A DNA stretch of 61,248 nucleotides, filler included, from Jimgerdemannia flammicorona (lineage: Eukaryota): the NCBI GenBank assembly GCA_003990765.1. It is 2 parts of 2 records of this genome, joined end to end, with 100 filler letters (N's around TTAATTAATTAA, not from the genome) between each part and the next. Parts side by side here need not be neighbours in the genome. Positions count along the whole stretch, not along the records: positions 30,680 to 61,248 come from RBNJ01000439.1; 1 more part is not named here. The stretch is one strand, 5' to 3'. Shown piece after piece: positions 3,625 through 55,282 of this stretch; position 1 is the stretch's first letter, and every line of letters begins with the position of its first letter. Under the pieces are notes generated by a model, which was not told where the DNA came from, ran no database searches, and was given only the letters and a program-made list of their open reading frames with translations. The position numbers were made by a program, and so were the translations under genes.

Positions 3625-3655
3625 GAGGAATATTGTTAAAGATTAAACCTCTCCT

Positions 3656-9736: not shown

Positions 9737-9818
9737 CACCTCTTTCCAGTACCATTTGGATTACACAACCTTTGGGAGACACTTTCAACATCATTTTCGG
9801 AGAAAAGAGACTAACAAT

Positions 9819-11842: not shown

Positions 11843-11875
11843 AGGCTGATTGATGACATCACATATATCATCAAT

Positions 11876-15591: not shown

Positions 15592-15628
<37 letters not shown>

Positions 15629-15633
<5 letters not shown>

Positions 15634-29331: not shown

Positions 29332-30579
29332 TGTCACATAGTGGTTGCTGAGTTCTTCAAATATGTCAGATTCTCTTCAAGGTATATCTCTTAGACTAAT
29401 TCAAGTTTGTTATAAGCAAGTTCTTATTGGAATACCTTCTCAAGGTCTTATAGTCTTCAAACTTCTTATCTTTAAACTGTCTTGTTATCTCTTTAGATTG
29501 CTTGCAAGGAATTGTATATATTGAACTAGAACTGAAACTGACTTTATTTCAAAGGAAATAAGAGAGGTATTTATACAAAATATAATTAGTTGCTAAGATA
29601 TAAAGCTAAATATAAATTCCAATAACCAAATAAAATACTGGAACACAGAAAACTATAGTTATTAGTATAGATTCCAATATTGGTACAGATGGTTGCACAA
29701 GTTCAGAGTGCTGGTAGAATTTAGTAGTATAGGAAAAAGATGCTGGAAGAATTCTAAGTTATGCAGAATCAGAATGTCAGTGGAAGAATTAACTATTATA
29801 TAGGAAAAAGATGCTGACAGAATTTGATATAACTAAGAACTTTAAAGCAAAATATTCAAGACTATGGGGGCTTCATCCTCATCATTGCTGAAGGAGATAA
29901 GATCTGTGAATATTTCATTTATCTTATCATATAGGTCATGTGTTTTGCATATATCATGTGGAATGATATTATCACTGATAATATTATTACATTCAGCAGT
30001 AGGGGCTCTCTAATCTATGACATTCTCTTCTACAAAATAAGGAACAAATATGGGGTCTTGGGGAGGTCTAACCTAGATGCTAAAGCCTTAGAATACTGAG
30101 ATCAATCCTTGTAGAAACTGATCTAGGTTGTCCTGGAGGATGAGATATCAGAACATTTCTATCTCATCACTATTGAGGGTGATAGTGGACTAGACCTCTG
30201 TAGCTATCATGGCTTCTAGTATATTGATATGATGGGCTAACAGATCTCTGAAGTCTGAGATTCTGATATACTTCAAGTTGGAGATTGACTATAGTATATA
30301 TCTGAAGATCTGATGAATCTTCTTAACTATTCTTATTTCACATATATCTATGAGAGTAGTATCTTGTAGCTCTTGAGGGCTGGCTTGAGGGAATTCCTAG
30401 CAGAGGAGGTTTCCTATTTCATATTCTTACCACATCTGGAGACATTCAGTAGCAATGGTGATTCTTGTCTCCATCTCATAGCAGTAGAGAATATAATGAT
30501 AAGAGTCACCAGTACCTAGGTTGACACTAGGAGTCCTTGTGGAGTGGGTCCTTATGGCTCTTTAGATGTCTTTTTTTTT
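29332..30579 (-). repeat. Family B 5' LTR (partial)
   Basis: Ends ...tgtgaca, followed by act and TGGTACCTATTGGCTGG (PBS). Homologous to 22099-23345. Confidence 0.88.
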
Positions 30580-30679
30580 NNNNNNNNNNNNNNNNNNNNN
30601 NNNNNNNNNNNNNNNNNNNNNNNTTAATTAATTAANNNNNNNNNNNNNNNNNNNNNNNNNNNNNNNNNNNNNNNNNNNN
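30580..30679. other. Assembly gap: 44 N + TTAATTAATTAA + 44 N
   Basis: Exactly 100 bp with a palindromic six-frame-stop linker. Contiguity across it is not established. Confidence 0.97.
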
Positions 30680-32817: not shown

Positions 32818-34881
32818 TGTAAGTGTATAACCTCCAAGCCACCGAAATTACATGTCACCCTCTGAACAAAGCCACTGAAATCACACGCGACCTCTGAACA
32901 AATCTGGAAATCACCTGCTTGATCACGAAGCTGAGTCAAACCGAAGTCACAGTGCACAAAGCTGAGTCAATACGAAGTCACGAAACACAAGATCTACACA
33001 AACAGAACCTTACCAATCAGGACCAAATACATATATACTGAGCACCGAGACGCGTCGAATCAGAGAACCAAAACAAATAACAACCACAACTTTCAAACAC
33101 ACAAACATGACCACTGAGATCTACAACCGCATCCGCGCTGATATTTGGAATGCCATTGTCAACCGAGCCACACCCCCTCTGTCCCTCATGAATATCCATA
33201 GCCTGGCACCCCTCTACTTCGTGGAAGCCCGATGGAATGCCCTGAACATGCTTAGCGAGGCCCACTGAATCAGACAAATCTCAAGCTACTACCAGATTGG
33301 CTGCCTCCTGGAAGACATGGTCGAACACCACCATGATACAGACATTACCCAGATGTCTCAACACCAGAAGCTCATCGCCCGCAAACATCGAGAACTCTTC
33401 TATGAGTATAGCACCTTTATTCCCTGCCTCCGAGTTACTACCAGCGAAATGGTTGCTACCCTGTCCTATGGCCAAATCGATAACATGATACAAGAAATCA
33501 ACCACAAGTACCTCGAATATGTCCAGACCACAGACAGAACCTTCCCGCACCCTGACGACCACATCCTGCAAATGCCTCAAGTTGGATATACCATGAAGGA
33601 TGTCTACAATATAATCCACTTCGACGAAGATGAAGTAGAAGACAATGATCCCTCTGACGCTGACATGACCTCTAGCCAAAGATCTCTGCCAACCCTGATC
33701 ACACTGCCAAACTTACCGATGAACCTACAACAGTTCATAACTACATATGAAACTTATTGGGACAATGACCACTAGCATGAATATCAACCCGCGTTCACCT
33801 CCGACTATTTCAACTACAATGAGGAGACTGGAGAATACAACCTGTACCTCCAGACAACCCTCGAGATCGAACCAACTATACCACCACCTGAGTACGAGCG
33901 ACATGAACCACAGCCGCCAGCTTATTACAATTCTGCAACTCATAGTGCTGTAACCTATAGAAGGTACGCAGACAGTGAATCTGACGAAAGCGAAGACAAT
34001 ATACCCATCCTTCATCCACCAACATCTTATCCAGCCTACGAGACAGACGATGCTATCCTGTGGGATGGAGATGAAGTCCCAATGTATTACTACCTCAGCC
34101 AATAAGAAGAAGTAATCCGCGAACCACTCTTTCTAGACAACTACTTCATCAGAGATGATGCAATCGATGGTGATATCATTGAAGACTACCCAGATAGTGC
34201 CTAAACCTATAAATAGTCTAGCAGTCATAGTATAGATAGATTAGCCTTGTATGACATGACTGTGAACTGACTCAGCAGTCAGACGATCTCTTGACATGTC
34301 AGATCACACTTATACTACATGACTGCATTCCGACTCAGCAAGGCACTTAGTGCTACATCCATATCTAGTATAGTCCAGATAGCCCCTCACTAGTATAAAT
34401 ACCCCCTCCCCCAGATCTCAGAATCTCAGACTTGAACAATCCGAACACAACTCCTGAGCACTTCCCCACAATACCTCTTCACACAAATACTCCTAGTATA
34501 GCAATATCATGAATAGCAAATAAACCTATTCTATAACCCACAAACCACTCTTAAGTAAATCTGCTCCCTGTTAGGTCCCACTCCTAACCCTATCACGAAA
34601 TTTCCTAATTGGGTATTGTCTGCAGTGATACGCCAATTCAACTAAGCTGGTCTTAGTTTCTTGAACTTCCTGAAATACGGAAAATCCTGAACATCCAGAA
34701 CTAGTCCGAAAAAGGACTTTGGTTGAGATGTCAACCCGATCTTGAAATCAATAAGCATAGAGGACGTACTCTATATGAAATTGATCTTGACCATAAGAAA
34801 ACAGTCTTCCAGAATACCCAGAACTTCCAGAAAACCTTCTAGAACTATGTAACGGCTACCCTAAAAAGTAACCCTCTTACA
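32818..34881 (+). repeat. Family A 3' LTR (2064 bp)
   Basis: TG...CA termini, preceded by PPT aagaaggggagagt. Near-identical to 43894-45967. Confidence 0.95.
33107..34204 (+). pseudogene. Family A LTR(U3)-encoded ORF, copy 1 (365 codons, internal stops)
   Basis: ATG at 33107 to TAA at 34202-34204, same length and frame as the other copies. Reads CGA where the other copies have TGA after PPPEYE. Confidence 0.8.
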
Positions 34882-34959
34882 TCTATCTAGATCAATTAAT
34901 TAAATAAGTTCTGAAGATTATAAAGAAGTAGGAGATGATATTAATACTATACTATATGA
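34882..34959 (+). pseudogene. hAT transposase relic, fragment 1
   Basis: Joins in frame with 49712 onward once element C1 and one ATGA copy are removed (DDINTILYEYIFNKRQKLIINPEQEIDAYL). Confidence 0.6.
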
Positions 34960-37900
34960 TATGATGGTTGATCTGAATTAGTATGAATCAGAGGAATAAG
35001 ATATTTGATCATAGTATCTGAATCTGATTCCCAAATATAGTATAGCTCAGATAGCAGTCATTTCACAAATGTTAAAGTTTTCACAAATATTAAACTATTC
35101 ATAGATATTAAACTCTTTGATGATTGTCAAAGATTTAACAGATATCAAAGATTTAATACTTGTGAAAGAAATGACTCATAGGAAACATAGTCATAACTTA
35201 GCCATCTTATAGCTAGTGAAACTTGTATAAATAACCCAGTATCTTAGAGTGAATAAAGCCTCAGATCGAAATAGTTCAAAGCAAAGAGATAGCAAGAAAC
35301 TAGTAAGCCTGCAAGCAGATACACTTTGAACTCACCCACTTCTATAACTCCAAAGACTCTGCAAGAGTCAGAACAGTTAAGTATTCAAGATACAGAAGTT
35401 TAACTTACTTTCAAAAGTAAGTATCCACTACATTATAACTTGGTACCTATTGGCTGGTGATTCAAGACAAATCTCTCACTTTTAAGCTGAATAATGAACA
35501 ACTGCCACTACCCAAACAACTATACAAACTGAGCCCCAATACCCAGACAAGATAGATATAAGATCACCAGTATTTTATAGATATATCTCAGATGAATCAA
35601 TCATCACCTTCATTGATGATTTCGAGCATTACACTGCTGTAAGGACCCTGACAGCAGTACAGAAAGTAGCCCTTATGCTCTTTAGCCTATGAGGCCCTGC
35701 AAGAGCAGCATTCATAGCTGCAAACTATGTGAAAAATGATGCCATTGTTACACTGATAGTACAGAAGACCTGGCTTTGAACTACTTACTACATAGATGAA
35801 ATTAAGTAAGCTCTAAAGAATCAGCTCAACACAATATACCAAGGAATGAGTGAAGATCTAAACACATTCTACATAAGAATCTGATACTAGATAATCCTTG
35901 CAGATTATACTAATGCTATCTGAGACCAAGTAGTAGAAGCAACCTTTATAAAAGGAGTCTACCCAGAGATAGCCATGGCTATCTGCTTATTACCAGTAAT
36001 TCTAGATCTGCCACAGAAGGTCACCTATGCTCAGTGATACTAGATAGCCAGACACCCACAAGACCATATGATGGAGAGGGTTACAGGAGTCAGAATCGAA
36101 GTACCCAAGACAATTAGTGTGATCCCTATCATAATGATCAATTGAAACACACCTCAGCCAAAAGCTATAGAGCAGCAAAAGAACAGTGACCCTTTGGAGG
36201 AACTTACTAAGAGGTTTGTAGAAATGACTGCCCACCTGGGAGATATAGTAAAGGAGATCAGAGGAAGAGACCACCACCTTGTTCAGAAGTTTGCTGCCAC
36301 CTCAGACAGAAAGAAAGGTACTTATTATACCTGTGGAGAAGAAGGCCACTACTCTTATAAATGCATGAGTGAAACCAAGCACAAGGTCCAACCAAGTAAT
36401 GCTATTAGAAACAAGGAGTAGACCAACATAATTATCTTCAAAGAAATTGGAGATTCTGATAAAGAAGAATGGGAGGCCTATCCTGCCCAGACCTCTAAGA
36501 AGGATGTTCGCAAGGAACCCTACAAGAGACTGCCAGGAAGACCCAAGAAGAACTCAGTGGAAAAGCAGATGAAAACTGCCACAGAAAGCCAAGTTGAAGA
36601 GATAGACCAAGATATGGAGCTAGAGTAAGTAGTTCAAAATATTATCTGAGAAACCACTCTAGCCAGCAAAGGAGAAAAAGAAAAGAAACTTCACAAGACT
36701 AAGACCTTCAAGTATGATATCTTCAAGGATCTTAGCCAATAAAAGGTCAATAAAACTTTTGGTCAGCTCGCAGAAATCCCAACATTCAGACAGCAAATGA
36801 GGTTTGGACTCACCGAAACAACCAAGAAGCAAGGATGGAAGATAACCAAGGCCAATAACATTCAAGAGGACTCAGGAGAAGAAAGTGAAGACAATTGTAA
36901 AACCTCTGTCTATGCAATATGCCAAATCAAAGATAGAATCTTTGAAGCCATCATTGATACTGGAGCAGAAGGATATCTTCTCAGTAAGAAGGCAGCAGAC
37001 TGCCTAGGTTGGGAGATTGAAGAAGCAACCAAGTTGGTGTTCATCACAACAGATAGTACAAGAGCCACCCCTCTGGGAAAGATCTGAGATATCTCCATCA
37101 AGATTGGAGGAGTAATCATTCCAGTAGATATAATCGTAACTAATGCTACCAACTATGATATCCTTATTGGCAATCAATGGCTTCACAAAGCCAGAGCAGT
37201 AATCAAGCTCAATGCTCAGAAGATGCAAATTACCTATTGGGGACAGAAGATACAAATTTCCATCAATGTCAATAAAGGAGTCTTGCCTGATATAGAGTAA
37301 GAAGAGAGTGAGCAAGAGGAAGCTTATATAGTGACTACTCCGAAGAAGAAAGTAGAATGGATGAGTGAAGAAGAATAGTATAAGAAGATCACAGAAAGCT
37401 ACACACCACAAGGAGTCTGTCCTCATGGGACCAAGATGTACTGTATGGAGTATGTTAATAATTGCTACCAGTGCACCATCAGAATCAAGAAGATCCACCA
37501 GGAAAGAAGACAGAAAGCTCTTGAAAAATAGGTCAGAGAAGAGAAGGAGGAGGAAGATAATGAACCACCAGCCCTCCTGGAGGATAGTGATGATGAAGAA
37601 GAAATCAAGGTCAAGATTTAAAGGACCCACCCTGATATAGTCTTACCAGAATATAAGTTGGAAAATGCAGCTGGAATGGACATCACCACAGTAGAAGAAG
37701 TCATAATAGAACTCCAGACAACCACCCTACTTGCAACTGGACTAGAGATGACTATCTCAAAGGATCATGTCAGAATCCTCAAGACAAGAAGCAGCCTGGC
37801 CAGAAGTGAAATTACTATTGAAGGAGGAGTCATTGATTCTGACTATACTGGAGAAATTCTGCTCATTGCTAGAAATCACAACCCTACAATTCCATTCCCA

Positions 37901-38247
37901 GTCAAGAAGAAGGACTGATTGGCACAGATGCTGATCTTTCTGATCCTATAACCAAGGATGTAAGCGCACAACCTCTAAGCCACCGAAAATACACGTCACC
38001 CTCTGAACAAAGCCACTGAAATTACACGTGACCTCTGAACAAATCTGGAAATCACCTGCTTGATCACAAAGCTGAGTCAAACCGAAGTCACAGCGCACAA
38101 AGCTGAGTCAATACGAAGTCATGGAACACAAGATCTACATAAACGGAACCTTACCAATCAGGACCAAATGCATATATACCAAGCACCAAGACACATCGAA
38201 TCAGAGAACCAAAACAAACAATAACCACAACTTCCAAACACACAAAT

Positions 38248-39345
38248 ATGACTACTGAGATCTACAACCGCATCCGCGCTGACATTTGGAATGCCATTGT
38301 CAACCGAGCCACACCCCCTCTGCCCCTCATGAATATTCATAGCCTGGCACCCCTCTACTTCGTGGAAGCCCGATGGAACGCCCTGAACATGCTTAGCGAG
38401 GCCCACTGAATCGGACAAATCTCAAGCTACTACCAGATCGGCTGCCTCCTGGAAGATATGGTCAAATACCACCACAATACAGACATTACCCAGATGTCTC
38501 AACACCAGAAGCTCATCGCCCGCAAATATCGAGAACTCTTCTATGAGTACAACACCTTTATCCCCTGCCTCTGAGTTACTACCAGCGAAATGGTTGCTAC
38601 CCTGTCCTATGGCCAAATCGATGACATGATACAAGAACTCAACCACAAGTACCTCGAGTATGTCGAAATCACAGACAGAACCTTCCCATATCCTGATGAC
38701 CACATCCTGCAAATGCCTCAAGTCGGATACACCATGAAGGACATCTACGATATAATCCACTTCGACGAAGATGAAGCAGAAGACAATGATCCCTCTGATG
38801 CTGACATGACCTCTAGCCAAGGATCTCTGCCAACCCTGATCACTCCACCAACCTTGCCGATGAACTTACAACAGTTCATAACTACATACAAGACTTATTG
38901 GGACAATGACCACTGGCACGAATACCAACCCGCGTTCACCCCTGACTACTTCAACTATAATGAAGAGACCGGAGAACACAACCTATACCTCCAAACAACC
39001 CTAGAGATCGAACCAACAACCCCACCACCTGAGTATGAGTGACTCGAACCACAGCCGCCAGCTTACTACAACCCCACGACTCATAGTGCTGTAACTTATA
39101 GAAGGTATGCAGACAGCGAATCCGATGAAAGCGAAGACAATACACCCATCCTTCACTCACCAATACCTTATCCAGCATATAAAACAGACGATGCTATCCT
39201 GTGGGATGGAGATGAAGTCCCAATGTATTACTACCTCAGCCAACAAGGAGAAGTTATTCGCGAACCACTCTTCCTAGACGACTACTTTATCAGAGATGAT
39301 GCAATCGATGGTGATGTCATCGAAGACTACCCAGATAGTGCCTAA
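38248..39345 (+). pseudogene. Family A LTR(U3)-encoded ORF, copy 2 (5' LTR)
   Basis: 365 codons. Three TGA stops, each at a position that is CGA in at least one other copy. Confidence 0.8.
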
Positions 39346-40035
39346 ACCTATAATTAGTCTAGCAGTCATAGTATAGATAGATTAGCCTTGTACGACATGA
39401 CTGTGAACTGACTCAGCAGTCAGACGATCTCTTGATATGTCAGATCACACTTGTACTACGTGACTGCATTCCGACTCAGCAAGGCACTTAGTGCTACATC
39501 CATATCTAGTATAGTCCAGATAGCCCCTCACTAGTATAAATACCCCCTCCCCCAGATCTCAGAATCTCAGACTTGAACAGATTTGAACAATCCGAACACA
39601 ACTCCTGAGCACTTCCCCACAATATCCCTTTACACAAATACTCCTAGTATAGCAATATCATGAATAGCAAATAAACCTATTCCATAACCCACAAACCACT
39701 CTTAAGTAAATATGTTCCCTGTTAGGTCCTACTCCTAACTCTATCACGAAATTTCCTAATTGGGTATTGTCTGCAGCGATATGCCAATTCAACTAAGCTG
39801 GTCTTAGTTTCTTGAACTTCCTGAAATACGGAAAATCCTGAACATCCAGAACTAGTCCGCAAAAGGACTTTGGTTGAGACGTCAACCCAATCTTGAAATC
39901 AATAAGCGTAGAGGACATACTCCATACGAAATTGATCTTGACCATAAGAAAACGGTCTTCCAGAACATCTAGAATATCCAGAAAACCTTCTAGAACTACG
40001 TAACGGCTACCCTAAAAAGTAACCCTCTTATAACT

Positions 40036-40047
40036 TGGTAGCAGCGA
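40036..40047 (+). promoter_or_regulatory. Primer-binding site, probably initiator tRNA-Met
   Basis: TGGTAGCAGCGA lies 3 nt after the LTR. It implies a tRNA with A1:U72 and A73, the eukaryotic iMet signature (inference). Confidence 0.7.
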
Positions 40048-40993
40048 TTTACAATCCAATTCCGCTTTAAGACGCTTCCTCACCCCGCTACAAACCCCTC
40101 TGCGAATTCCTACAAGTTGGTATAAAGCCCAACCTCTGAACTGGAATTTATCTGAACAATCGGACAATCTGGAGAGAATTGAACCTGATGTACAAGGACA
40201 ATTTGACCTCCACATCTGCAACAAGTGGGATAAACTTCATTCAAAGAAAGAAGTACTCAAGTTAAATCAGCAAATAGGCGAAACCCTATTCATCGAACTC
40301 CTTGCACTACACCCAGCAAGTCAAGATGAAGAAGGTCTTATTGAAGTCTTCTTTACTCTTCTCAACAAGAGTTTTGTCAGCTCCACAAATCCGAGCAACC
40401 TAGGACAACCAGCAGCAGTCTTTCTAGCCTTAGTTTCTCACGAAGCCCAAGCCTCTGTAGCCAAGTGGCTCAACTCTACCAACTTTCACCGCACCAGGAC
40501 CAAGACTGCATTATACTACTGATTCCAGAACAGCAAGGCCCGCCATATTCTTAAGGAAGAAGCAAGAGAAATCCTTCATCAACTACCTAACCCCGAACCT
40601 GAAGCAGGCCCTACTACAGCCCTACCTGAATCTGAAACCAACACCGAACCTGAACTTGACTTTGAATTAAGTCCATCTGAAATCAGATATACAACTGATT
40701 CTGTCTACTTTGACGCTGAGCAAACCCAATTACACAGGGACCAAACCGAAGAAGAGGAGGAGTATCTCACCGAATTCGATCCCGGATACACCACCGAAGG
40801 AGACATACATCCATCAGGATAGAATACACCTACACAGCAACAAACAGCTATCTATCAAGCTCTCACTCCAGATCCACAACTACTACTCCAGCAACTTACA
40901 TAGACCCAAAGAACCCCATCACACTCTGCACCAGTACCTCAAGTAGTACCAGTAATACCACTACCAGCAGTCCAACTGTCTCCAGTAAACAAC

Positions 40994-43468
40994 ATGGTGA
41001 ACCAACAGATTCTAGACCTTACAGCCCAAGTAGCTATAATGGCAGCAACCATTACTGCCTTAGCTGAACAGACCCGACCTACCAAAAATCTGAGCCTACC
41101 TACCTTCAATGGTACTGCACAAGAAGTCCAAAGCTTCATTAGTGTAGTTGACACCAACTTTGAAGCCAATCAATGGACCAATGAGCAAGTTGCTGACCGC
41201 GTTCTGACAAACAATCAAGACCACACCCTGGAACAACTCTTTGCTACAACTACAGCCTATGTCCACCGAGTTGTTACATTCTTCCAAGGACCTGCCGAAG
41301 AATGGTGGTGAACTCTTCCTGAAAAACCCCTCATATGGGATATCCGACCTGCAGTAGTTACTCAGAATGCAGCAAACAATGCCCCAGGATATGGAGCCCA
41401 TCCTGCAGCACCTGGACTCAAACAACTCATGATTGCTCAATATCGCAGCGAGACCATGATTGCCGAATCTCGAGTAAAACTCCGCAACCTCAAATTTGAT
41501 GTACATGGCAAAGAAGAATTCGAAACCTTCTGTACAAAACTCGAGTCACTTCTGAACACTGTTGGCCTAGGATATATTGCCAATGATGAAGCACGAAATG
41601 GTACAAGAGCAGACCATTTATTTGATGCCCTGCCTGAATGGCTTATTAGAAAAATCTGAGAACAAGGCCACCCAGTTGGTTGCGATCACCAACAATGGTG
41701 CCTAGCAAGAATCAAGACTATGGTCAAGCGAATCCTAACAGTTGGACCAATTCTGCCCTGAAGGCAATTCAACAACAAGGAAAAGACTTGGACTAAGAAA
41801 GAAGAACCCAAGCATGAAGCATCCCAAGCTCCCTCCACATCCACCTCTTGGACACCCAGAAATCATGAACCCACCCAGCCGAGTACCTTCAAGAAACTTA
41901 CTGAAGGTGAAAGGAACGAACTTCAAAGAAGCGGAGCATGCTTCTATTGCCGAAAGACAGGACACATGGCCAGTGTCTGCCCCAACTGAAAACCCCAAAC
42001 AGCAACATGAGCAACTGTTACTACTCTGCACCACCTCAACAACCTGACCACCAGAACACTAGACTTTGTCAAGTTAAGACAAACTGCTAAGGCCCCAACC
42101 AAAGGAAGTCAAAAAGCAGCTGGATATAACCTGTATGCAGCCAAAGAAGCTACAGTTTCTAACTGAGAAGTCAAACAAGTCTATACAGGAATCAGCATCC
42201 AAATCCCTGAAGGATATATTGGAAGAATATGCTGTCGCAGCAGTCTAGCATTGAAAGGACTCTCAGTAGAAGGAGGAGTCATTGACAAGGATTACACAGG
42301 CAAAATTATTATCCTCATCCGAAACCACAGTTGGACACCCTTCAAGATCCCTATTGGCTTCTGCATCACCCAGATCCTATTCGAAAAAATCAAGTCAACC
42401 CTGACAGTCAAGGAAGTCCCTGAACTACTGCCCACCATCCGAGGATCCAAAGGATTTGGCTCATCAAACAAGGCCCCAGCCCAACCTACTGTGAGCAAAG
42501 AAGAACAATTCTATAAGAAGATCGAAGATAGATATGTACCAAGTGGCCAATGCCCTCATGGTATTGGAATGTACTCTTCCCGAATGATTGATGATTGCTT
42601 CTCTTGTGTCAATTAACTGGCTCAAAGAAGAACCAACAGAAGAAAGGCTCCTACAACCGAAATCACCACAATTGGATCAGACAAACTGCTCACTCTTAAG
42701 GCTTTTGTCAACGGAGCACCTGTCAAGATTATGATAGACAGTGGTGCCTCAGGCAACTTCATCAATGAGGAAACAGCCAACAGACTCAAGGTCTTCACCT
42801 CCCCAGTACAGCAAACTCAAGCAGTTGCTACAGCTGATGGAACCTCACATGTTATTAGCAAAGAAGTCCGCAATCTACCCTTCCGAATTGGCGACTACCG
42901 AGTACATATTACCCTCCAAATCGTACCACTTCCTGATAATGAAATCATCCTTGGGACTCCATGGTCAAAACAAGAGAACCCCATGATCGATTGGGTAAAC
43001 CATTCTCTGACCATCAAGAAAGGACGCCACAACTTCAAACTATAAGGCGAAAAGGACTCACTCAACTCTAGTGACCCTGGACCAAAGATCACCCACATCA
43101 ACAAGCTACAACTCAAGAAATTGGCCAAGAAATGCCCTCTCTTCGCCATCTCCATCTGACCATCCAAAGGAGAACCCGAGAACTCCAAAGAAGATTTTTC
43201 CAAAGTTGACAGCCATGTCAGACCACTACTCCAGAAGGTCCAAGACATATTTCCAAACTGAACCACCGAACCACCTACACCTGTCATCATAAATGACCAA
43301 GAAGAATATGAAGTTGAACAAATCCTCAACAAACGTGGCAACAAGAACCATCCTGAGTACCTTGTCAAATGGAAAGATTACCCGATCCATGATGCAACCT
43401 GGGAACCCAAGACCAATCTTCAGAATGCTACCGACCTAGTTCAGGAATATGATTCCTTAAACAACTAG
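40994..43468 (+). pseudogene. Single-frame Gag-zinc knuckle-dUTPase-CPHG-protease-chromodomain polyprotein
   Basis: All domains share one frame: LPTFNGT, CFYCRKTGHMASVC at 41939, AAGYNL/GGVIDKDYTG/RGSKGFGSS, MIDSGASGNFI at 42731, EYEVEQIL...WEP, TAG at 43466-43468. Internal stops are mostly C>T-type. Confidence 0.92.
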
Positions 43469-44182
43469 AACCAAATACTCTGCACCTATCCATACATACT
43501 ATATATTACTCTCCCGAACATTATAACTATCACAAACCAAATCAAGAACTCAGCAAAACAAGACAAGAATACCAAATCCCTGGAAAAATAGCAAAACTGA
43601 AAGCAAGCCTATTCTCCCCATACCACTGGTGGGAAATGAGGCGTAGACATTTAAGAAGATTCCTTAGAGGAAATTCTCCAGCAGTGATTGACGTCAGAAT
43701 CACTTCCGGCACACGGCATCGAACACACGACCCTTTAATGTGTGAATCCAACGCATTAGGCAACTGTACTACGAGCATGCCACTTTCTGAGAAAATGGAC
43801 CTTACCAGACTTTTGATCTTCCAAACGGTGTAACAACACTAGAACAAATTAGAAGGCCCTGATGAGGACGTCAAAAGCTAAGAAGGGGAGAGTTGTAAGC
43901 GCACAACCTCCAAGCCACCGAAAATACATGTCACCCTCTGAACAAAGCCACTGAAATTACACGCGACCTCTGAACAAATCTGGAAATCACCTGCTTGATC
44001 ACGAAGCTGAGTCAAACCGAAGTCACAGCGCACAAAGCTGAGTCAATACGAAGTCACGGAATACAAGATCTACATAAACGGAACCTTACTAATCAGGACC
44101 AAATGCATATATACCGAGCACCAAGACACATCGAATTAGAGAACCAAAACAAACAACAACCACAACTTCCAAACACACAAAC

Positions 44183-45280
44183 ATGACTACTGAGATCTAC
44201 AACCACATCCGTGCTGACATTTGGAATGCCATTGTCAACCGAGCCACACCCCCTCTGCCCCTCATGAATATCCATAGCCTGGCACCCCTCTACTTCGTGG
44301 AAGCCCAATGGAATGCCCTGAACATGCTTAGTGAGGCCCACCGAATTGGACAAATCTCAAGCTACTACCAGATTGGCCGCCTCCTGGAAGACATGGTCGA
44401 ACACCACCACAATACAGACATTACCCAGATGTCTCAACACCAGAAGCTCATCGCCCACAAATATCGAGAACTCTTCTACGAGTACAACACCTTTATCCCC
44501 CGCCTCCGAGTTACTACCAGTGAAATAGTTGCTACCCTATCCTATGGCCAAATCGATGACATGATACAAGAACTCAACCACAAGTACCTCGAGTATGTCG
44601 AAACTACAGACAGAACCTTCCCGCACCCTGATGACCACATCCTGCAAATGCCTCAAGTCGGATATGCCATGAAGGACGTCTACGATATAATCCACTTCGA
44701 CGAAGATGAAGCAGAAGACAATGATCCCTCTGATGCTGACATGACCTCTAGCCAAGGATCTCTGCCAACCCTGATCACTCCGCCAACCTTGCCGATGAAC
44801 TTACAACAGTTCATAACTACATACGAGACTTATTGGGACAATGACCACTGGTACGAATACCAACCCGCGTTCACCCCCGACTACTTCAACTATAATGAAG
44901 AGACCAGAGAACACAACCTATACCTCCAAACAACCCTAGAGATCAAACCAACAACCCCACCACCTGAGTATGAGTGACTCGAACCACAGCCGCCAGCTTA
45001 CTACAACCCCGCAACTCATAGTGCTGTAACTTATAGAAGGTACGCAGATAGTGAATCCAATGAAAGCGAAGACAATACACCCATCCTTCGCCCACCAACA
45101 CCTTATCCAGCATATGAAACAGACAATGCTATCCTGTGGGATAGAGATGAAGTCTCAATGTATTACTACCTCAGCCAACAAGGAGAAGTTATTCGCGAAC
45201 TACTCTTCCTAGACGACTACTTTATCAGAGATGATGCAATCGATGGTGATGTCATCGAAGACTACCCAGATAGTACCTAA
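44183..45280 (+). pseudogene. Family A LTR(U3)-encoded ORF, copy 3 (best preserved; one TGA)
   Basis: The 264-aa ORF continues after the TGA at 44975 (CGA in copy 1) to TAA at 45278-45280, giving 365 codons. Unknown function. Confidence 0.85.
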
Positions 45281-45469
45281 ACCTATAATTAGTCTAGCAG
45301 TCATAGTATAGATAGATTAGCCTTGTACGACATGACTGTGAACTGACTCAGCAGTCAGACGATCTCTTGATATGTCAGATCACACTTGTACTATGTGACT
45401 GCATTCCGACTCAGTAAGGCACTTAGTGCTACATCCATATCTAGCATAGTCCAGATAGCCCCTCACTAG

Positions 45470-45477
45470 TATAAATA
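45470..45477 (+). promoter_or_regulatory. Putative TATA box of the family A LTR
   Basis: TATAAATA followed by a C-tract, conserved in all five A LTRs, with AATAAA ~135 bp downstream. This places the ORF in U3. Confidence 0.6.
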
Positions 45478-48400
45478 CCCCCTCCCCCAGACCTCAGAAT
45501 CTCAGACTCGAACAGACTTGAACAATCTGAACACAACTTCTGAGCACTTCCCTACAATATCCCTTTACACAAATACTCCTAGTATAGCAATATCATGAAT
45601 AGCAAATAAACCTATTTCATAACCCATAAACCACTCTTAAGTAAATCTGTTCCCTGTTAGGTCCTACTCCTAACTCCGTCACGAAATTTCCTAATTGGGT
45701 ATTGTCTGCAGCGATATACCAATTCAACTAAGCTGGTCTTAGTTTCTTGAACTTCCTGAAATACGGAAAATCCTGAACATCCAGAACTAGTCTGCAAAAG
45801 GACTTTGGTTGAGACGTCAACCCAATCTTGAAATCAATAAGCGTAGAGGACGTACTCCATACGAAATTGATCTTGACCATAAGAAAACGGTCTTCCAGAA
45901 CATCCAGAATATCCAGAAAACCTTCTAGAACTACGTAACGGCTACCCTAAAAAGTAACCCTCTTACAAAGGATCATAGAAGTCAAGAATTTGGAGGAAAC
46001 AAAAAGAGGAAAGAAAGGATTTGGATCTATAGGAAGAGGAGTATTCACCAGTACCAAGATCACCAAACTGAAGCATAAGAAGAAGGAAATCACAAACAAG
46101 TACAGCTATACCATTGGAAATAAATTTCCACTCAAGGAGAAATTCAAGAAAATACTCTATAAATTCAAGGATGTCTTTGTCATGAACTTCAAGGATATTA
46201 AAGGAAAGACTCCACACTACTATCATAAGGTAGATACTGGAGACACTGAACCAATTTACCAGAAGGCAAGACCTGTCCCACCAGCCTACCAAGAATAGCT
46301 CAGAGAAGAAATCAAGCAGATGGAAAAAGCCAGTATTATTAAAGAAGCCAGTAGCCCCTGGTCTTCACCAGTTATACTAGCCCCAAAAAAAGAAAGCAAG
46401 CTTGGAGAATTTGCCCCAAGACTCTGTGTTGACTACAGAAAGCTCAATGTGGTTATCAAGAAGGATCACCAATCACTGTCCCTCATCAGTGACATCCTTA
46501 TAATACTAGGAGATGAAGTACAGTACTATAGCACCTTGGACTTATACTCAGAATTCCACCAAATTGGACTCACAGAAATGGCAAGTGAAAAGTCAGCCTT
46601 CATCACTCCTGACAGAACCTATATTTACCTGTGAATGCCATTCGGGATGTGTAATGCACCAGCAAGCTTCCAGCAAATGATGAACAAAATCTTCTGCTAT
46701 GATATAGAAAGATGGATGATGGTTTATATTGATGATGTAATTATCTACAGCAAGATACCTGAGGAATATCTGCAGCACATACAGCAGATAATGGAGAGAC
46801 TAAGACAATATGACCTTTACATCAAACCCAAGAAGTGTAAGTTTGCAGAAATTGAGATCTTCTACCTTAGCTATGTTATCAATTGAGATGGAACACATAC
46901 AGACCCCCTCAAGATACAAGCAGTAGCAGCATACCCAAGGTCCACTACTGTTACAGAAACCCAAGCCTTCATGGGACTTATCTCCTACTATCACAGATTT
47001 ATTAGAGGATTCTCTAACATCACAGATCTAATCTATGAACTCAATAGGAAGGACACCAAGTTTCAGTGGACTGGTAGACAATAAAAAGCATTTGATGAAC
47101 TCAAGGTCAGACTGACCCAGGCACCTATTCTTAGATGACCCAATTGGACTCAAGAATTCATCCTGCAGACAGATGCAAGTGCACAGGAACTAGGAGTAGT
47201 TCTAGCTCAAAAGGAAGACAAAAAAGAGTACATCATTGCATACCTTAGCTACAGAACCTGAGGAGCTGAAAAAGAATATGAATCCTACAAGTTGGAATGT
47301 CTTGCAGTCATCTGGGCTATAGAAAAGTTCCACTACTATCTGGCTGGAAGACACTTCATCATTCAGACAGACCACTCAGCTCTCACCTGACTACTGACAA
47401 CTGGATAACCTAAAGGAATCTACACCAGATAGATAATGAAGCTACAAGCCTACAATGTAACCATTGTACACCACCCTGGAAGAACAAATTCCAATGCAGA
47501 TGCTCTCTCATAAACATCCCAAAATACCTCCAACCAACAAATTAATTATAAATAAGAAGCTCTACTATAGAATTATCACATATCTGGGACAGCAAAAGAT
47601 GCCCCAACATCTGGAAGAATAGATACAAATGATTATCAACAAAACATGGAAACAATTCAAAACCAACAGAGAAACACTGAAGAAAGGAAAACTACTGGTC
47701 ATACCAGAACACAAGAAGGAGTAAGCTATGAAATCAGTATATAAACTTGGCTATCTAGGAGGAACAAATATATATAACAAGGCAAGAAGAATGATATAGT
47801 GATCAGAAATGGAGGAAGATATCAGACAATTTGTCAAAATCTGTAACAAATGCCAGAAACAAAAGCAAGACCAACAAAACCAAGCTCTGGAATCAGCATA
47901 CATAGAACCAGTACCATTTGCCCATATAGCAATGGATGTAATTGGCCCTCTACCTTTGACCTTGACTGACAACTGATATATCATTATCATCATAGACCTT
48001 TTTACAAAATGGATAGAAGCAAGACCCCTTAAGGAAGTCAATGTACAGTCAATTGCCTATTTCTTTCACAAAGAAATCATCTGCTGGTTCAAGACTCCAA
48101 TGCAAGTAACTACAGATAGAGGAACAGAATTCATGAACCAGTTCTTTGAGATTCTCTATAAGAAGTACAAAATCTAGCACATTCAGACCACAGCCTATCA
48201 CTCTCAAGGAAATAGACAAGTAGAAAGAACCAACAAGACCCTCAAGAATATTATCACCAAGATCTGTGATAACTATGAAAACTGGAATCATTATCTGCCA
48301 ATAGCATTATCTGCTCTCTGGGATATCAGATTACAAAGTACCTACTTTATCTCTCAAGAAATACTGTTTAGAGAAGAAAGTTCTTAAGAAACCCTATTGT

Positions 48401-48730
48401 CCAATAGAGATGCTATATGAAAACATATGGATCAAGAAATATAGAGACTACACCAAATCAGGAAGAAGGTCAAAGATTATATAACCAAGGTACAGGTACT
48501 ACAATAGAAGAATGTGGAAAAGACCCACAAACCCTTGGAGATTATCAAGATAGGAGACAAAGTTCTGGTGTATCATAATATAGTAGAAGCTTCATAGTCA
48601 TAAAAACTGGAGCCCAAGTGGGAAGGACCTTACCTTGTGCAAGATATAAAAGAGACTACCTTTTGGCTACAAAAACTCTCAGGCACAATCATCCCTACTA
48701 CCATTTATCAAAACCAACTCAAGAGGTACC

Positions 48731-49192
48731 ATAACTAACCAGAGAAGTATTGCCTCAGCTCTCAAGATCACTAGTGCTGCACAGTAAGCCATAGAAAGAC
48801 AATGGTGCACCACCAAACCACCTGCTATGGAGGAATCCTTTGATAGTATCCAGAGTATAGTCCAGACACACTTGTCATGAATTTCACACTTTAAGGCCTA
48901 TCAGAACTGAACCGAGTTTCAGGAATACTTCAAACTAGGATAACTACTAAATTTGCAGCTAGAGATGGGAAAAGAAGACTGGATTAGAGAGTGCCAGCTT
49001 TCCCATATTCAGATCACAATTACCAAATAAATCAACAAGTTGTTCAAGGATAATGAGCCAGCCTTAGCCTACTTTCGAGGAGTAGTCCCAGGAAATTTTG
49101 GATATATCAAAAGACATCATTAGGAGAATGTAATGATATAAATTGTATAGTATAAGGAGATACAAATTATAGAAGCATGGGAGTTTGAGTAA
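48731..49192 (+). pseudogene. Family C post-integrase accessory ORF relic (~153 codons)
   Basis: Frame intact from ATA (ATG in C2 at 58858) to TAA at 49190: QEYFKLG(Q)LL...ITITK(R)INKLFKDNEPALAYFRGVVP. All stops are transition-derivable. Confidence 0.72.
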
Positions 49193-49711
49193 ATAGGATG
49201 TTTCAGAGATAAATCACCTATTCAGGAGGAAGTTGTGACAGTTGATCTGAATTAGTATGAATCAGAGGAATAAGACATTTGATCGTGGTATCTGAATCTG
49301 ATTTCCAAATATAGTATAGCCCAGATAGCAGTTATTTCATAAATATTGAAGTTTTTACAAATGTTAAACTATTTACAGATGTTAAACTCTTCGATGATTG
49401 TTAAAAATTTAATAGATATCAAGGATTTAACACTTGTGAAAGAAATGACTCATAGGAAACATAGTCATAACTTAGCCATCTTATAGCTAGCAAAACTTGT
49501 ATAAATAACTCAGTATCTTAAAGTGAATAAAGTCTCAGATTGAAATAGTTCAAAGCAAAGAAATAGCAAGGAACTAGTAAGCCTGTGGGCAGATACACTT
49601 TGAACTCACCCACTCCTGCAACCTCAAAGACTCTGTGAGAGTCAGAACAGTTAAGTATTAAAGATACAGAAGTCCGACTTACTTTCAAGAGTAAGTGTCC
49701 ACTATGTTACA

Positions 49712-50021: not shown

Positions 50022-53000
50022 TATAATAGTTGATCTGAATTAGGAATATAAATCAAAAGAATAGACATTTGATTATAGTATCTAAATATGATTCTCAAAT
50101 AAGTATAGCCTTATAAATAGCAGTCATTTTACAAATATAGAAACTTTAACAAATGTTAAAATTTCACAAATATTAAGATTTCACAGATACATATTAAGAA
50201 TCTATATTTGTAAAAAAAGTAACTTATAGAAAATATAGTTATAACTTAGCCATCTTATAGCTAGTAAATTTATATAAATATTTTAATATCTAGAGTAAAT
50301 AAAATCTCAGATAAAAATAGTTTAAAGTAAAGAGAAAGCAAGAGAACTAGTAAGTCTGCAGATAGATATACTTTGAACTCATCCACCCCTATATTCTGAG
50401 GACTCTATAGAGTCAAAGAAGATCAAGTTTTTAAAATACAGAAATCTGATATATTTATATAGTTATGTGTTCACTATATTACAACTTAGTGCCCATTAGC
50501 TGATGATTCAAGATAAATCTCTCACTTTCAAGCTAAATAATGAACAACTACTATTACTAAACTAAGACACCCAAATAAGATAGATATGAGACTACCAGTA
50601 TTCTATAGATATACTTCAGATAAATCAATTATTACCTTCATTGATAATTTCAAGCAATATGCTACTATAAGAATCCTGATAGCAAAACAACAAGTAGCTC
50701 TTATACTCTTCAGTCTCTGAGACCCTACAAGAGCAGTATTCACAGCTGTAACTTATATAGGAAATGATGATAATGCTGTACTGACAGTACAGAAGATCTG
50801 GCTCTAAGCTACCTACTATATAGATAAGATCAAGCAAGCTCTAAAGGATCAGCTCAATACAATATACTAAGAAATTAGTAAGTATCTAAACATATTCTAC
50901 ACTAGAATCCAATATTAGATAATTCTTATAGATTATACTACCACTATCTGAGATCAAGTAGCAGAGGGAATCTTTATAAAAGAAGTCTATCCAGAGATAG
51001 CCATGTCTATCTACTTATCATCAGTAGTCCTAGATCTAGTACAAAAGATCACCTATGCTTAGTAATACTAGATAGTCAGACATCTCTGAATTGAAGTATC
51101 TAAGATAACCAATATAATCTCCACTATAGTAATTAATCAAAACACACCTCAGCTAAGAGTTACTGAGTAGTAGCAAAATAGTGACCCTATGGAGAAACTA
51201 GCTAAGAAGTTTACTGAAATGACTGTCTACCTAGGAGATGTAATAAAAGAAATCAGAGAAAGAGACTATCACCTAGTTCAAAAGTTTGCTGCCATCTCAG
51301 ACAAGAAGAGAGATATCTGCTACATCTGTAGAGAAGAAGGTCATTACTCATATGAATATATAAGTGAGACTAAGTATAAGGCCCAGCTAAGTAATACTAT
51401 ATAAAACAAGAAACAGATCAATACTATCACCTTCAAAGAAATTGGAGAGTCTGATGAAGAAGAATAGGAGACCTACTCTATATAGACTACTAAGAAAGAT
51501 ATTTATAAGAAACTCTACAAGAGACTACCAGAGAGACTTAAAAAGAACTCAGTGGAGAAATAAATAGAAATTACTATAGAAAGCCAAGTTGAAGAAATAG
51601 ATCAAGATATGGAGTTGGAATAGGCTATTTAAGATATTATTTAAAGAACTACTCCAACCAGTGAAAGAGAAAAGAGAAAAAGCTTTGCAAAATCAAAACT
51701 TTTAAATATGATATCTTTAAGAACCTCAGCTAATAAAAGATCAATACAATCTTTAACTAGTTGGCAGAAATATCTACATTTAGACAGCAAATAAGATTTG
51801 GACTTACTGAAACAACTAAGAATTAAGACTGAAAAATAACTGAGACCAATAATGTTCAGAAAAATTTAGAGAAGAAAGTAAAGATAATTATAACACTTCT
51901 GCCTATACAATCTATCAAATTGAAGATAGAATCTTTGAGGTCATTATTGATACTAGAGTAGGAAGATGTCTCCTCAGTAAGAAAGTAGTAGACTATCTAA
52001 ATTGGGAGGTTGAAGAACCAATCAAGTTAGTATTCATTATAGTAGATAAAACAAGAGTCACACTTCTGAAAAAGATCTGAGATGTTCTTTTCAAGTTTGG
52101 AAGAGCAACTATCTCAGTAGATGTAATCATAATTAATACTACTAATTATAATATTCTCATTATCAACTAGTGGCCTCATAAAGTCAGAGTAATAATTGAC
52201 CTAGATGTCCAGAAGATGCAAATTACCTATTATGGACAAAATATGTAAATTTTTATCAATATCAATAAAGAAGTACTCCTCAAAATAAAGAAAGAAGAAA
52301 GTAAGCAAGAAGAGACCTATATAGTAACTACTCAGAAAAAGAAGAAGAAAGTTAAATAGATAAGTAAAGAAGATTGATATAAGAAGATTATAGAAGAATA
52401 TATACTATAAGAAGTCTGCCCCCATAGGATCAAGATATACTATATGAAGCATATCAATAATTATAATTAGTATACTGGCAGAATCAAGAAGATCTATTAT
52501 AAAAGAAGACAGAAGGCTCTCAAGAAACAGGTAAGAGAAGAAAAGAAGGAAAAAGAGGATAATAAACCACCAGCTCTCCTTAAAGACAGTAATGATGAAG
52601 AGGAAATCAAGGTCAAGATTCAAAAGATCTATCCTGATACAGTTCTACCAGAATATAAGTCAGAGAATATAGCTAGAATAGATATTACAATAGTAGAAGA
52701 AACTATACTTGAACTCTAGACAACTACTCTACTTATAACTGATCTAGTGATAGTTATTCTAAAGGACTATATCAGAATTCTCAAAACAAGAAGTAGTCTG
52801 GCTAGGAGTGAGATTGTCATTGAAGGAAGAGTTAGAAGTTAGCAGAAACAGAGAAAGAAAGGAAAGAATTTAGATCTATTAGAAGAGAAGTATTCACCAG
52901 TACTAAGATCACTAAACTAGACCACAAGAAGGAAAAAACTACAAATAAGTATAACTATACTATTGGAAATGAATTTCCACTCAAGAAAGAACTCAAGAAG

Positions 53001-53932
53001 ATACTTTATAAATTTGAGAATATTCTGGCTATAGATTTCAAAAGATGCTACATTATTACTATGATATAGATATAGGAGATACTAAATCAATTTATCAAAA
53101 AAGTAAGACCAATTCCATCAGTCTACTACAAATAGCTCAGAAAAGAAATCAAGCAAATGGAAGAAGCTGATATCATCAAAGAAGCTAGTAGTTCTTAGGC
53201 TTTACCAGTTATACTAGTCTCAAAAAAAAGGAAATAAGTCAGGAGAATTTACTTCAAGGCTCTATACTGATTACAGAAAGCTCAATCTAGTTATCAAGAA
53301 GGATTACCAACTACTATCTCTCATCAGTGATATCCTTATAACTCTAGGAGATGAAGTATAGTATTATAGTACCTTGGACTTATATTTAGGATTCTATCAA
53401 ATTAGTCTCATAGAAGTAATAAGTGAGAAGTCAGTCTTTATTACTTCAGATAAAACTCATATTGATCTGTAAATACTATTCAGAATATATAATATACTAG
53501 TAAATAATGAATAAAATATTCTACTATAATATGGGAAAATAGATGATGGTTTATATGGATAATATAATCATTTATAGCAAGATACTAGAAGAGTACATAC
53601 AATATATTCAGCAGATGATAGCTGAGAAAGTATGGTCTATATATTAAGCTCAAGAAGTACAAGTTTGTAGAAATTAAGATCTCCTATTTTAGCCACATCA
53701 TCAACTGAGATAAAACATATATAAACTCTCTCAAGATTCAAGCAATAGTAGCATATCTAAGACCTACTACTGTTACTGAAGCCTAAGCTTTCATGGGACT
53801 TACCTTATACTACTGTAGATTTATCAAAGAATTCTCTAATATCATAGATCTAATCTATAAACTCAATAAGAAGGATATTGAGTTCTAATAGACTAATAGA
53901 TAATAAAAAGCATTTGATGAGCTCAAGATCAG

Positions 53933-55134
53933 CCAGTGTCCCTTTCTCCACTATATTACCAGTCACAAGGTTTGGTAGGCAATCTTCTGAGTCCTCTTTC
54001 CCCTATTATTACCCCCTCTACCTCAGGTTGATTTGCTGTGCCTGCATGGGTATAGTGGGAGGAGAGCAATGGTGATGAGTTACTTCTTTATCAGTATCAG
54101 ATCAGTATCTTTTCTACTTTTTCATAGTTTCTGGTACCTTTGGCTATGTCTAGAGTACATCCATTTTGGTGCAACATCTTCTTCTTTTTGCCATCACCAA
54201 TAAGGTACTGCCTTGGTACATCATAAGTTATATAGGGAGTCAGCTGATCTTGGGTGTCAAGTACTCAGTGTAGGTTATCTGCAAGTCCTTAGTACCTGTG
54301 GTGGGGCCCTCTGACTTTGGCGAGCTTCCCAGTAAGTACAGTTCTGACATAGGTGAGGTGTTGTCAGGATGGGAGGAGAGATGGCCATCACAGATAGGAG
54401 GATGGATGATAACAGTGAACCAGTGGAGTGCCAGGCTGGGAGCAGTCATTGGGGCTAGGGTAGACAATATTTCAGTGGGGCCTTTTGATTGGCTGGTGGG
54501 AGGTGGGGTGGTATAGGGGCTGGCATTCTGGCTGTACCCAACTAGAACCAGGAGCTGACATGGCAACATGATCAAGGTCCACAGGCTTGGGGAGTGGGGC
54601 CTTTCTCATTTGGTAGTATCCAACTGGAACCAGGAGCTGACATAGTAATGTGATCAAGGCCTGCAGGCTCAGGGAGTGGGAGTGGGGTCTTTTCAAGCCC
54701 TAGCCCATATGTAAGTCCTTTGAGGAAGGTGCTGTATATAAGTTCTTTACTCATCCACTTTGAATCCACTTTGCTCTCTGTTGGTTAGTTGGGGTTTTTT
54801 CTTTACCTTGGGCTTTTTTTTAGAGTTTGGGAGGCTATTCTTTATTTAGTCCCGGTGCTGCTAGATCTAACATATAGGTGTGCTCTCACATATAAACAAT
54901 GATCCAGCCCTGGTAAGCAGACAAGTCTAGTCTATATCATTGGGGTCAATGTAGCCAGTGTTTGATAGATATAGCTAGAGCAGTAGGACTGCTGGACAAT
55001 TTAGTAGTCTAGATTAATGGGGGGATATTATTCGGTGGGTAGTGGGGGAGGGTTTTGGCCTATATAGTCTAGGTTCCCTTCTAATAAAAATCCATGGGAC
55101 TATGAGTCCATTAAAAAAAAAAAAAAAAAAAAAA
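53933..55134 (+). mobile_element. 1.2-kb retroposed (TPRT-type) insertion of unknown origin
   Basis: 16-bp TSD ATGAGCTCAAGATCAG (53917-53932 and 55135-55150), AATAAA at 55083, 22-A tail. Internal ~80-bp duplication (54535/54617). Confidence 0.9.
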
Positions 55135-55282
55135 ATGAGCTCAAGATCAGACTGATCTAAGCACCTATTCTCAGAAGACTCAATTGGACTCAAGAATTCA
55201 TTTTGTAAATAAATATAAGTATATAAGGACTAGGAGTAGTCCTAGTTCAGAAGAAAGACAAAGTAGAGTATATTATTACATA

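Follow-up and report, generated by a model that had tools for sequence, protein, structure and literature searches.

A probable accessory gene inside the long terminal repeats of a Ty3/Gypsy chromovirus from Jimgerdemannia flammicorona

Retrotransposons that have long terminal repeats (LTRs) are usually described as gag-pol between non-coding LTRs, and genes that reside in the U3 region of the LTR are a hallmark of some retroviruses. In mouse mammary tumour virus (MMTV) the superantigen gene sag lies inside U3 of the LTR, and tas/bel1 of foamy viruses as well as nef of human and simian immunodeficiency viruses (HIV/SIV) are accessory genes at the 3' end that overlap U3. Tas is a trans-activator with an acidic domain, and its gene has an internal promoter of its own, separate from the LTR promoter. 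Here we analysed a stretch of 61,248 nucleotides from the fungus Jimgerdemannia flammicorona (assembly GCA_003990765.1; two parts of two records joined by 100 filler letters), hereafter the window, along which all positions are counted. Three LTR copies of a Ty3/Gypsy retrotransposon in the window contain a reading frame of 365 codons, termed ORF365. We consider it likely that ORF365 is a genuine gene which belongs to the element, resides in its LTR and was once under selection. It would be an accessory protein gene of a dUTPase-bearing chromovirus, i.e. a gene that lies wholly inside the LTR and stays behind in solo LTRs. The three copies are as follows:

33107-34204, plus strand: ORF365 copy 1, with stops at codons 54 (TGA), 223 (TAG) and 333 (TAA)
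38248-39345, plus strand: ORF365 copy 2, with stops at codons 54, 109 and 265 (all TGA)
44183-45280, plus strand: ORF365 copy 3, with one internal stop, the TGA at codon 265 (44975-44977)

A preliminary description of this DNA had noted an open reading frame (ORF) of identical length and frame starting at 33107, 38248 and 44183, each of its stops being a transition away from a sense codon of another copy, and both observations hold. The frame is collinear over 365 residues in all three LTRs, with no gap column among the 1098 columns of the alignment, while the 3' third of the LTR contains 10 such columns in the same alignment. Altogether there are seven internal stops (three, three and one in copies 1, 2 and 3), which fall on only five codons, and at all five of these CGA, TGG or CAA, one transition away, is found in another copy. 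Thus, the stops are secondary transitions. Including the terminal one, the ORF365 frame has 2-4 stops per copy, the other two plus-strand frames 13-30. The changes that are private to copy 2 or copy 3, and hence cleanly polarised, are almost entirely C>T, with rates per site of 17% at CpG, 9.6% at CpA, 2.8% at CpC and 0.3% at CpT. This post-insertion spectrum is repeat-induced or methylation-driven, a mix between classical repeat-induced point mutation (RIP) and deamination of methylated CpG.

A long frame might also have stayed open by chance in A/C-rich, G/T-poor LTR DNA that never coded for a protein. The plus strand is poor in G (17%) and T (21%), which lowers the stop frequency, and the protein matches no family or fold in the searches made. 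Yet, mononucleotide shuffles of copy 3, which keep its composition, contain 16.2 stops on average, with two or fewer in a fraction of 0.0002 (n = 5000). Moreover, the bias towards third-position and synonymous changes described below is confined to the frame of ORF365, and a relative with 66% identity is open over 247 codons and aligned to the same C-terminal end. A chance frame is therefore highly improbable, and we return to ORF365 as a gene.

The evidence for selection comes from the 70 differences that set copy 1 apart from the common state of copies 2 and 3, a set that also contains divergence from the time when the lineage was active. Changes found in copy 2 or copy 3 alone postdate integration and are thus expected to be neutral. 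As expectation, the same changes were placed at random onto sites with the same base and neighbour in 2000 simulations. The 70 differences are distributed 18/9/43 over codon positions 1/2/3, and 44 of them are synonymous as compared to 24.2±3.7 expected, a value reached in none of the 2000 simulations. Read in the other two frames, the same differences yield 15 and 12 synonymous changes (21.6 and 20.8 expected). Among the private post-insertion changes, 8 of 26 and 12 of 23 are synonymous (7.9 and 8.2 expected). Phases are 5/5/6 and 9/7/10 in the LTR DNA on the two sides of ORF365 and 10/10/10 in the pol-LTR spacer, where 8 of 30 changes are formally 'synonymous' against 9.2 expected. In the positive control, the gag-dUTPase-protease region of two copies, 95 of 201 changes are synonymous (69.4±6.2 expected), i.e. 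the signal in ORF365 is at least as strong as that of the control. A rough omega, calculated as (26/45.8)/(44/24.2), is ~0.3, a value that still includes the post-insertion decay of copy 1 itself. As the bias is found in the ORF365 frame alone and the private changes and flanks are neutral, ORF365 was once a working protein gene. It was under purifying selection as a protein-coding frame while the family diversified, and the copies in the window later decayed neutrally via C>T changes at CpA and CpG. The claim of the preliminary description that ORF365 is a protein-coding gene is thus borne out by three observations that agree with each other, the synonymous excess, the pattern in a solo LTR and the open homolog with 66% identity; within the window, neither a dN/dS near 1, nor frequent frameshifts, nor a match to an ordinary Gypsy domain was found.

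The 2.07-kb repeats that carry ORF365 were defined by self-comparison of the window and by three-way alignment. Together with the element to which two of them belong, element A, their features are:

32818-34881, plus strand: LTR copy 1 (2064 bp), with the domains RNase H, integrase, SH3 and chromodomain and a polypurine tract ahead of it
37959-40032, plus strand: LTR copy 2, the 5' LTR of element A, 2074 bp, terminal CA mutated to TA
43894-45967, plus strand: LTR copy 3, the 3' LTR of element A, 2074 bp, TG..CA ends, ORF365 at LTR positions 290-1387
40033-43893, plus strand: internal region of element A, a single frame with gag including a CCHC knuckle, dUTPase, aspartic protease and chromodomain
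43873-43892, plus strand: polypurine tract AAAAGCTAAGAAGGGGAGAG, separated by one base from the 3' LTR of element A and located upstream of ORF365
40036-40046, plus strand: site TGGTAGCAGCG resembling a primer binding site (PBS), 3 nt beyond the 5' LTR (copy 2)
37954-37958 (left) and 45968-45972 (right), no strand: target-site duplication AAGGA, flanking element A

Copies 2 and 3 are 96% identical, and copy 1 is 92% identical to either of them. All three start with TGTAAG and end with TTACA (TTATA in copy 2), and the polypurine tract AAGAAGGGGAGAG plus one base precedes copies 1 and 3. The three repeats are true LTRs, judging from their TG..CA ends, the polypurine tract, the PBS-like site and the target duplication of 5 bp, and the AAGGA flanks, the LTR termini, the tract and the PBS-like site identify copies 2 and 3 as the two LTRs of one integrated element. 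The insertion site of element A lies in another Gypsy element, element C, whose LTRs are 460 bp long. As the polypurine tract is located upstream of ORF365, reverse transcription copies ORF365 into both LTRs.

The internal region of element A contains dUTPase (E-value 2.7e-31) and Chromo (7.7e-16) domains according to Pfam, and it is devoid of reverse transcriptase (RT), RNase H and integrase, i.e. element A is a deletion derivative. The sister copy in front of LTR copy 1 encodes the Pfam domains RT_RNaseH, Integrase_H2C2, rve, SH3_Tf2-1 and Chromo, and LTR copy 1 is the 3' LTR of this 5'-truncated sister element. Just before its readable RNase H-integrase frame, at ~30560-30690, there is a run of simple repeats that consists of stop codons only (strings of X in one frame), and this direct adjacency indicates that the sister element is truncated on its 5' side. 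Based on the domains of both elements, the family is a dUTPase-bearing Ty3/Gypsy chromovirus, the domain order being pooled from element A and its sister, as no complete copy and no RT of the family is present in the window. ORF365 thus resides in a bona fide Ty3/Gypsy LTR upstream of a TATA box, as the preliminary description had it, judging from the LTR ends, the chromovirus domains and the order of TATA box and AATAAA (see below). As a separate observation, the gag-pol frame of element A is nearly open over ~350 codons at 40034-41100, upstream of the capsid-like part of gag. This segment comprises a helical-looking part and an acidic part rich in Glu, Asp, Tyr and Thr, has no Pfam match, and could correspond either to a Gag with a long extension at its N-terminus or to another ORF.

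A fourth LTR allows the selection signal to be followed in a second lineage:

55283-57355, plus strand: solo LTR of a diverged subfamily, located inside element B, with ACATA/GCATA as 5-bp target duplication

The solo LTR starts with the first 26 nt of the LTR and ends with TTACA, and its target site is present as a single copy in element C. It keeps codons ~53-365 of ORF365. LTR positions ~27-445 are missing, and the deletion joins two CCACCGAA strings, removing the upstream region together with 52 codons; the presence of CCACCGAA at both ends suggests template switching or a microhomology-mediated deletion. Further damage includes an 11-nt deletion in ORF365 and heavy C>T decay, and ~430 bp of AT-rich DNA with short tandem motifs are inserted after the TATA box (56497-56928), just past the presumed transcription start. 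Dispersal of the ORF by solo LTRs, which had been proposed earlier, is hence seen here, albeit with a damaged ORF365. Compared with the three full copies, C>T/G>A changes amount to 53/39/57 over the codon positions, resembling decay, as opposed to 3/3/14 for transversions and 4/2/7 for T>C/A>G. The third-position excess among these non-decay changes means that the second lineage agrees with selection.

Beyond the window, a search of 1.84 billion representatives, which stand for 15 billion predicted proteins, yielded no more than two credible relatives of ORF365, P0001 and P0002. Each was the single hit of a word-indexed search, P0001 among proteins of near length and P0002 among shorter ones. 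P0001 has 247 amino acids (aa), originates from a 998-bp contig and is free of stops. It aligns to ORF365 residues 115-364 with 166/250 identities (66%), 207/250 positives and two in-frame gaps of 2 residues, and its last residues align with the C-terminal end of ORF365. P0002 (128 aa) is 91% identical to ORF365 and has Arg at the stops of copies 1 and 2. LTRs are routinely masked ahead of gene calling, which may explain why only two fragments occur among 15 billion predicted proteins and which calls for caution in annotation. Scans of JGI metagenome contigs and of viral contigs returned no relatives with DNA context. The sole match among prokaryote genome contigs, from an archaeal metagenome-assembled genome (L001; 29% over 71 residues), is regarded as a chance resemblance within a stretch rich in Tyr, Asn and Glu. 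Apart from the ORF365 family itself, similarity was limited to one protein from an exhaustive search, P0003, a protein of 436 aa with at least six tandem repeats of ~60 residues, which matches 38 residues of ORF365 (111-148, the VATLSYGQIDDMIQELNHKY region) six times with an overall E-value of 1e-7; it was judged to be chance, spurious or convergent.

Public data were inspected as well, namely four runs, of which three are soil metagenomes and one stems from a coded organism (contigs of DNA or unspecified kind). The family is abundant in all four, with 134 to 6744 short contigs on the element per run. The 12 indel places listed, out of 22, map to 40150/40151, the post-pol spacer, 43944 and 45503-45535, so that ORF365 is hit by none of these 12, and among the ORF365 variant sites listed four of six are synonymous third positions. 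As these rows are the smaller part of the tables, the public-run data lend weak support.

How ORF365 might be expressed depends on its position relative to the signals within the LTR:

45470-45476 (LTR position 1577), plus strand: TATAAAT, the sole canonical TATA box common to the three LTRs, kept in the solo LTR
45605-45610 (LTR 1702-1712 across copies), plus strand: AATAAA, the sole one in the LTR, 135 nt past TATAAAT
44000-44061, plus strand: a tandem pair of 31-nt repeats that both contain TGAGTCA, located 120-180 nt ahead of the ORF365 ATG
44106-44114, plus strand: TATA-like CATATATAC, ~70 nt ahead of the ATG, with a C/A-rich leader after it, in all three copies

TATAAAT lies 190 nt past the ORF365 stop and is preceded by TGACTCA at 45344. 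It is presumed to be the promoter of the genomic RNA, and AATAAA the poly(A) signal that defines R. As a TATAAAT with an AATAAA behind it is how promoter, R and poly(A) signal are usually arranged, ORF365 would lie in U3, for which the motifs suggest a length of ~1.6 kb. In all three copies the 289 bp before the ATG contain the TGAGTCA repeats, TATA-like CATATATAC and the C/A-rich leader. TGAGTCA is presumably an AP-1/Gcn4-type palindrome, and the repeats are a candidate enhancer of a promoter specific for ORF365. Thus, ORF365 would most likely have its own promoter, located in the first 289 bp of the LTR, with its transcript ending at the LTR AATAAA; every LTR would then be a self-contained 1.5-kb gene. 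Alternatively, the protein may be made from a subgenomic spliced RNA, as is the case for retroviral 3' genes. A conserved branch point/acceptor before the ATG was considered and rejected, TACTAAT of copy 3 being a private C>T change. A scan for promoters and terminators of the bacterial type, whose model is not suited to a eukaryote, returned nothing above shuffles.

The TATA-like box, the two TGAGTCA repeats and the C/A-rich leader, lying directly before the ATG in all three copies, would also suit a different arrangement, in which ORF365 is real but located in R (or R-U5) and the genomic RNA starts at the TATA-like box near 44106. ORF365 would then be the first cistron, a stop at the AATAAA of the 5' LTR giving a short mRNA and read-through giving the genome. 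The sole TATAAAT/AATAAA pair, however, 135 nt apart as in the usual layout, follows ORF365 and is conserved in the solo LTR, and an R of ~1.5 kb would be far outside usual R lengths. We thus hold this arrangement to be improbable and consider U3 the more probable location.

A further question is whether ORF365 belongs to the element at all, as not every related LTR in the window has it:

17544-19033, plus strand: LTR variant without ORF365, in which the LTR's initial 53 nt and final 720 nt enclose 717 nt of unrelated DNA

In this variant LTR positions 54-1338 are replaced by ORF-less DNA, and the last 19 ORF365 codons remain. ORF365 might hence be a passenger, i.e. a captured fragment of a host gene or a small cassette that was inserted into an ancestral LTR, in which case selection would reflect its former life or a benefit for the host rather than any role in the cycle of the element. 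Such an origin would account for the other DNA that the variant has where ORF365 would be, for the 460-bp LTRs without ORF365 in the sister family (elements B and C) and for the inverted copies of GCTGAGTCA..TCACAG that flank ORF365 (44006-44067 vs 45319-45352). This module occurs twice in tandem before ORF365 and once, inverted, after it, the copies being 71-74% complementary, and may be either a repeated AP-1/Gcn4-type enhancer or the trace or ends of a cassette insertion. As it is built around a palindromic site, the inverted arrangement may reflect nothing but a repeated enhancer. Moreover, no cellular homolog was found among the 1.84 billion representatives, in Pfam or in the Protein Data Bank (PDB), and the synonymous excess is observed between LTR copies of the element, which argues that selection acted while ORF365 rode in the LTR. 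We therefore regard a mere passenger as unlikely, to about the same degree as a location in R, and favour a gene of the element.

The ORF365 protein has an isoelectric point (pI) of 4.34 and contains neither a hydrophobic segment (maximum KD19 0.86) nor a basic cluster. A D/E/Y/P-rich tail had been predicted and is indeed present (residues 146-365, pI 4.05, 46 D+E, 21 Y and 24 P), whereas the helical N-terminal domain predicted along with it is seen only at low model confidence, residues 1-145 being modelled as five helices with a pLDDT of 52. The AlphaFold2 model of the full-length protein has a pLDDT of 32. The C-terminal part is conserved in P0001 in blocks, e.g. YQPAFTPDYFNYNE and PLF.D.YFIRDD, suggesting that this region is more than a loose acidic tail. 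It also contains the motifs PPEY (260) and PPAY (270) in all three copies, with ~0.3 such motifs expected by chance according to an estimate for a Pro/Tyr-rich tail. Conserved PPxY motifs are a mark of adaptor or late-domain proteins, in which they bind ubiquitin ligases with WW domains. Searches for known relatives of the protein gave no match in Pfam (best E-values 0.055-0.52, all under the curated cut-offs), in a sequence-profile search of the PDB (E 0.45), with Foldseek against the PDB using the low-confidence model (no match at E ≤0.001, best 0.86) or, for the open 264-aa part, in the ESM Atlas (best score 0.86, under the meaningful level). A diverged copy of gag or pol of element A was likewise rejected (BLASTP E at least 0.5). 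The ORF365 protein is thus an orphan with no recognisable family or fold.

Based on these features we envisage a soluble, acidic protein whose N-terminal domain would be helical and whose C-terminal half is conserved, acidic-aromatic and equipped with two PPxY motifs. Most likely the protein would act in trans for the element, as regulator or adaptor. A first guess would be a transcriptional activator of the LTR, similar to Tas/Bel1 of foamy viruses. That ORF365 is an LTR trans-activator or adaptor working for the element is a tentative proposal, drawn from composition and by analogy to the 3' regulators of retroviruses. More speculative still is the extended scheme in which each LTR, solo LTRs included, is a self-contained gene whose product activates the LTR promoter of the family or blunts silencing of the methylation or RIP type. 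If it were true, ORF365 would be the fungal retrotransposon counterpart of retroviral regulators of the Tas/Tat type, with a dose that rises with each solo LTR.

Several points weigh against regarding ORF365 as a gene of the element with such a role. The case is built entirely from DNA and protein sequence, and the frame is broken by stops in all three copies of the window. The test for selection draws on a single window, with 70 differences among three copies and, in addition, a solo LTR. As P0001 and P0002 were retrieved as called proteins, their openness is partly ascertained, and with two credible relatives in 1.84 billion the ORF365 family is narrow and perhaps short-lived. The assignment to U3 is based on motifs, and the TATA-like box before the ATG would allow the genomic RNA to start there. 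LTRs without an intact ORF365 exist (17544-19033 and the 5'-deleted solo LTR), from which it follows that ORF365 is dispensable in cis, as is expected for a product that acts in trans and also compatible with a passenger. Finally, pLDDT values of 32 and 52 amount to no confident fold, so that the function is guessed from composition, and P0001 lacks the PPxY motifs, with PLSEY and PLAY in the corresponding alignment positions.

The window contains further mobile elements. Element C, the host of the nested element A, extends over 34945-37958 and 45968-49704, has 460-bp LTRs and encodes RT, RNase H and integrase. Element B (50022-59838) is 77% alike to element C and belongs to the same dUTPase-bearing Gypsy family with ~460-bp LTRs. 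Its G+C content is 24-30%, as compared to 44% in element A, and it is far more decayed by C>T changes. It carries a 1.2-kb insertion at 53933-55134 that ends in a poly(A) of 24 nt (55112-55135) and is probably a 5'-truncated non-LTR retroposon; a comparable run of A is found at the end of a LINE, at 15593-15630. This non-LTR retrotransposon is present in two copies, at 375-6242 on the minus strand and at 9484-15532 on the plus strand, which are arranged head to head and share 70-80% identity. The plus-strand copy comprises 1230 codons with one internal stop and encodes AP-endonuclease and RT domains. With a G+C content of 47-54%, the LINE coding strand has an extreme GC skew (~+0.42; -0.45 for the other copy). 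The LINE protein has a very high content of Gly, Trp and Arg.

ORFs in addition to gag and pol have been described for several Ty3/Gypsy elements. In the accessible parts of the sources these are ORF0 of Retrosat2, RIRE3 and RIRE8 of grasses, located upstream of gag (PMC3485330), ORFs captured downstream of pol in plants and rotifers and the extra ORFs of Ogre (PMC6431247, PMC5408684), and an 'add. ORF' that a figure legend indicates for some fungal chromoviruses (PMC2864245). As far as these parts go, they share with ORF365 that they are lineage-restricted, have no assigned function, evolve faster than pol and yet are constrained, and often occur along with unusually long LTRs; in contrast to ORF365, which lies behind the polypurine tract in the LTR, they are located in the internal region, either before gag or between pol and the 3' LTR. 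The closest backbone is that of the dUTPase-bearing fungal chromoviruses, i.e. Tmt1 of Tuber melanosporum and elements of Phanerochaete and Postia, which according to the part of the source at hand have a CCHC gag, a dUTPase before the protease and a chromodomain ending the integrase, just like the element A family; unlike for the latter, no LTR-resident ORF is mentioned for them in that part (PMC2864245). In the literature search, which had most subscription journals outside its reach, no gene inside the LTR of a retrotransposon was met.

In its location ORF365 rather resembles retroviral genes. Like sag of MMTV, it is a complete ORF inside the LTR, past the polypurine tract, present in both LTRs and apart from gag-pol(-env). 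Nevertheless, the two differ in context and product, as sag belongs to a vertebrate betaretrovirus and its product is a membrane glycoprotein of type II with an action on the T cells of the host, whereas ORF365 is found in a chromodomain Ty3/Gypsy retrotransposon and its protein has neither a hydrophobic segment nor a Pfam match. Like tas and nef, which reach into U3, it would be an accessory gene at the 3' end, and a separate promoter, as tas has, is what we propose for it. However, tas and nef merely overlap U3 and ORF365 is wholly within the LTR, and no similarity in sequence or fold was found in Pfam, the PDB or with Foldseek. What appears to be new is thus an accessory gene of a retrotransposon that is placed as some retroviral ones are and that codes for an orphan protein. 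If this is true, the 'complex' layout would have arisen independently outside the vertebrate retroviruses, each solo LTR would gain potential coding capacity, and ORF365 would be a candidate, amenable to experiment, for a regulator of the element or for an antagonist of genome defence in fungi that silence repeats via C-to-T mutation and methylation.

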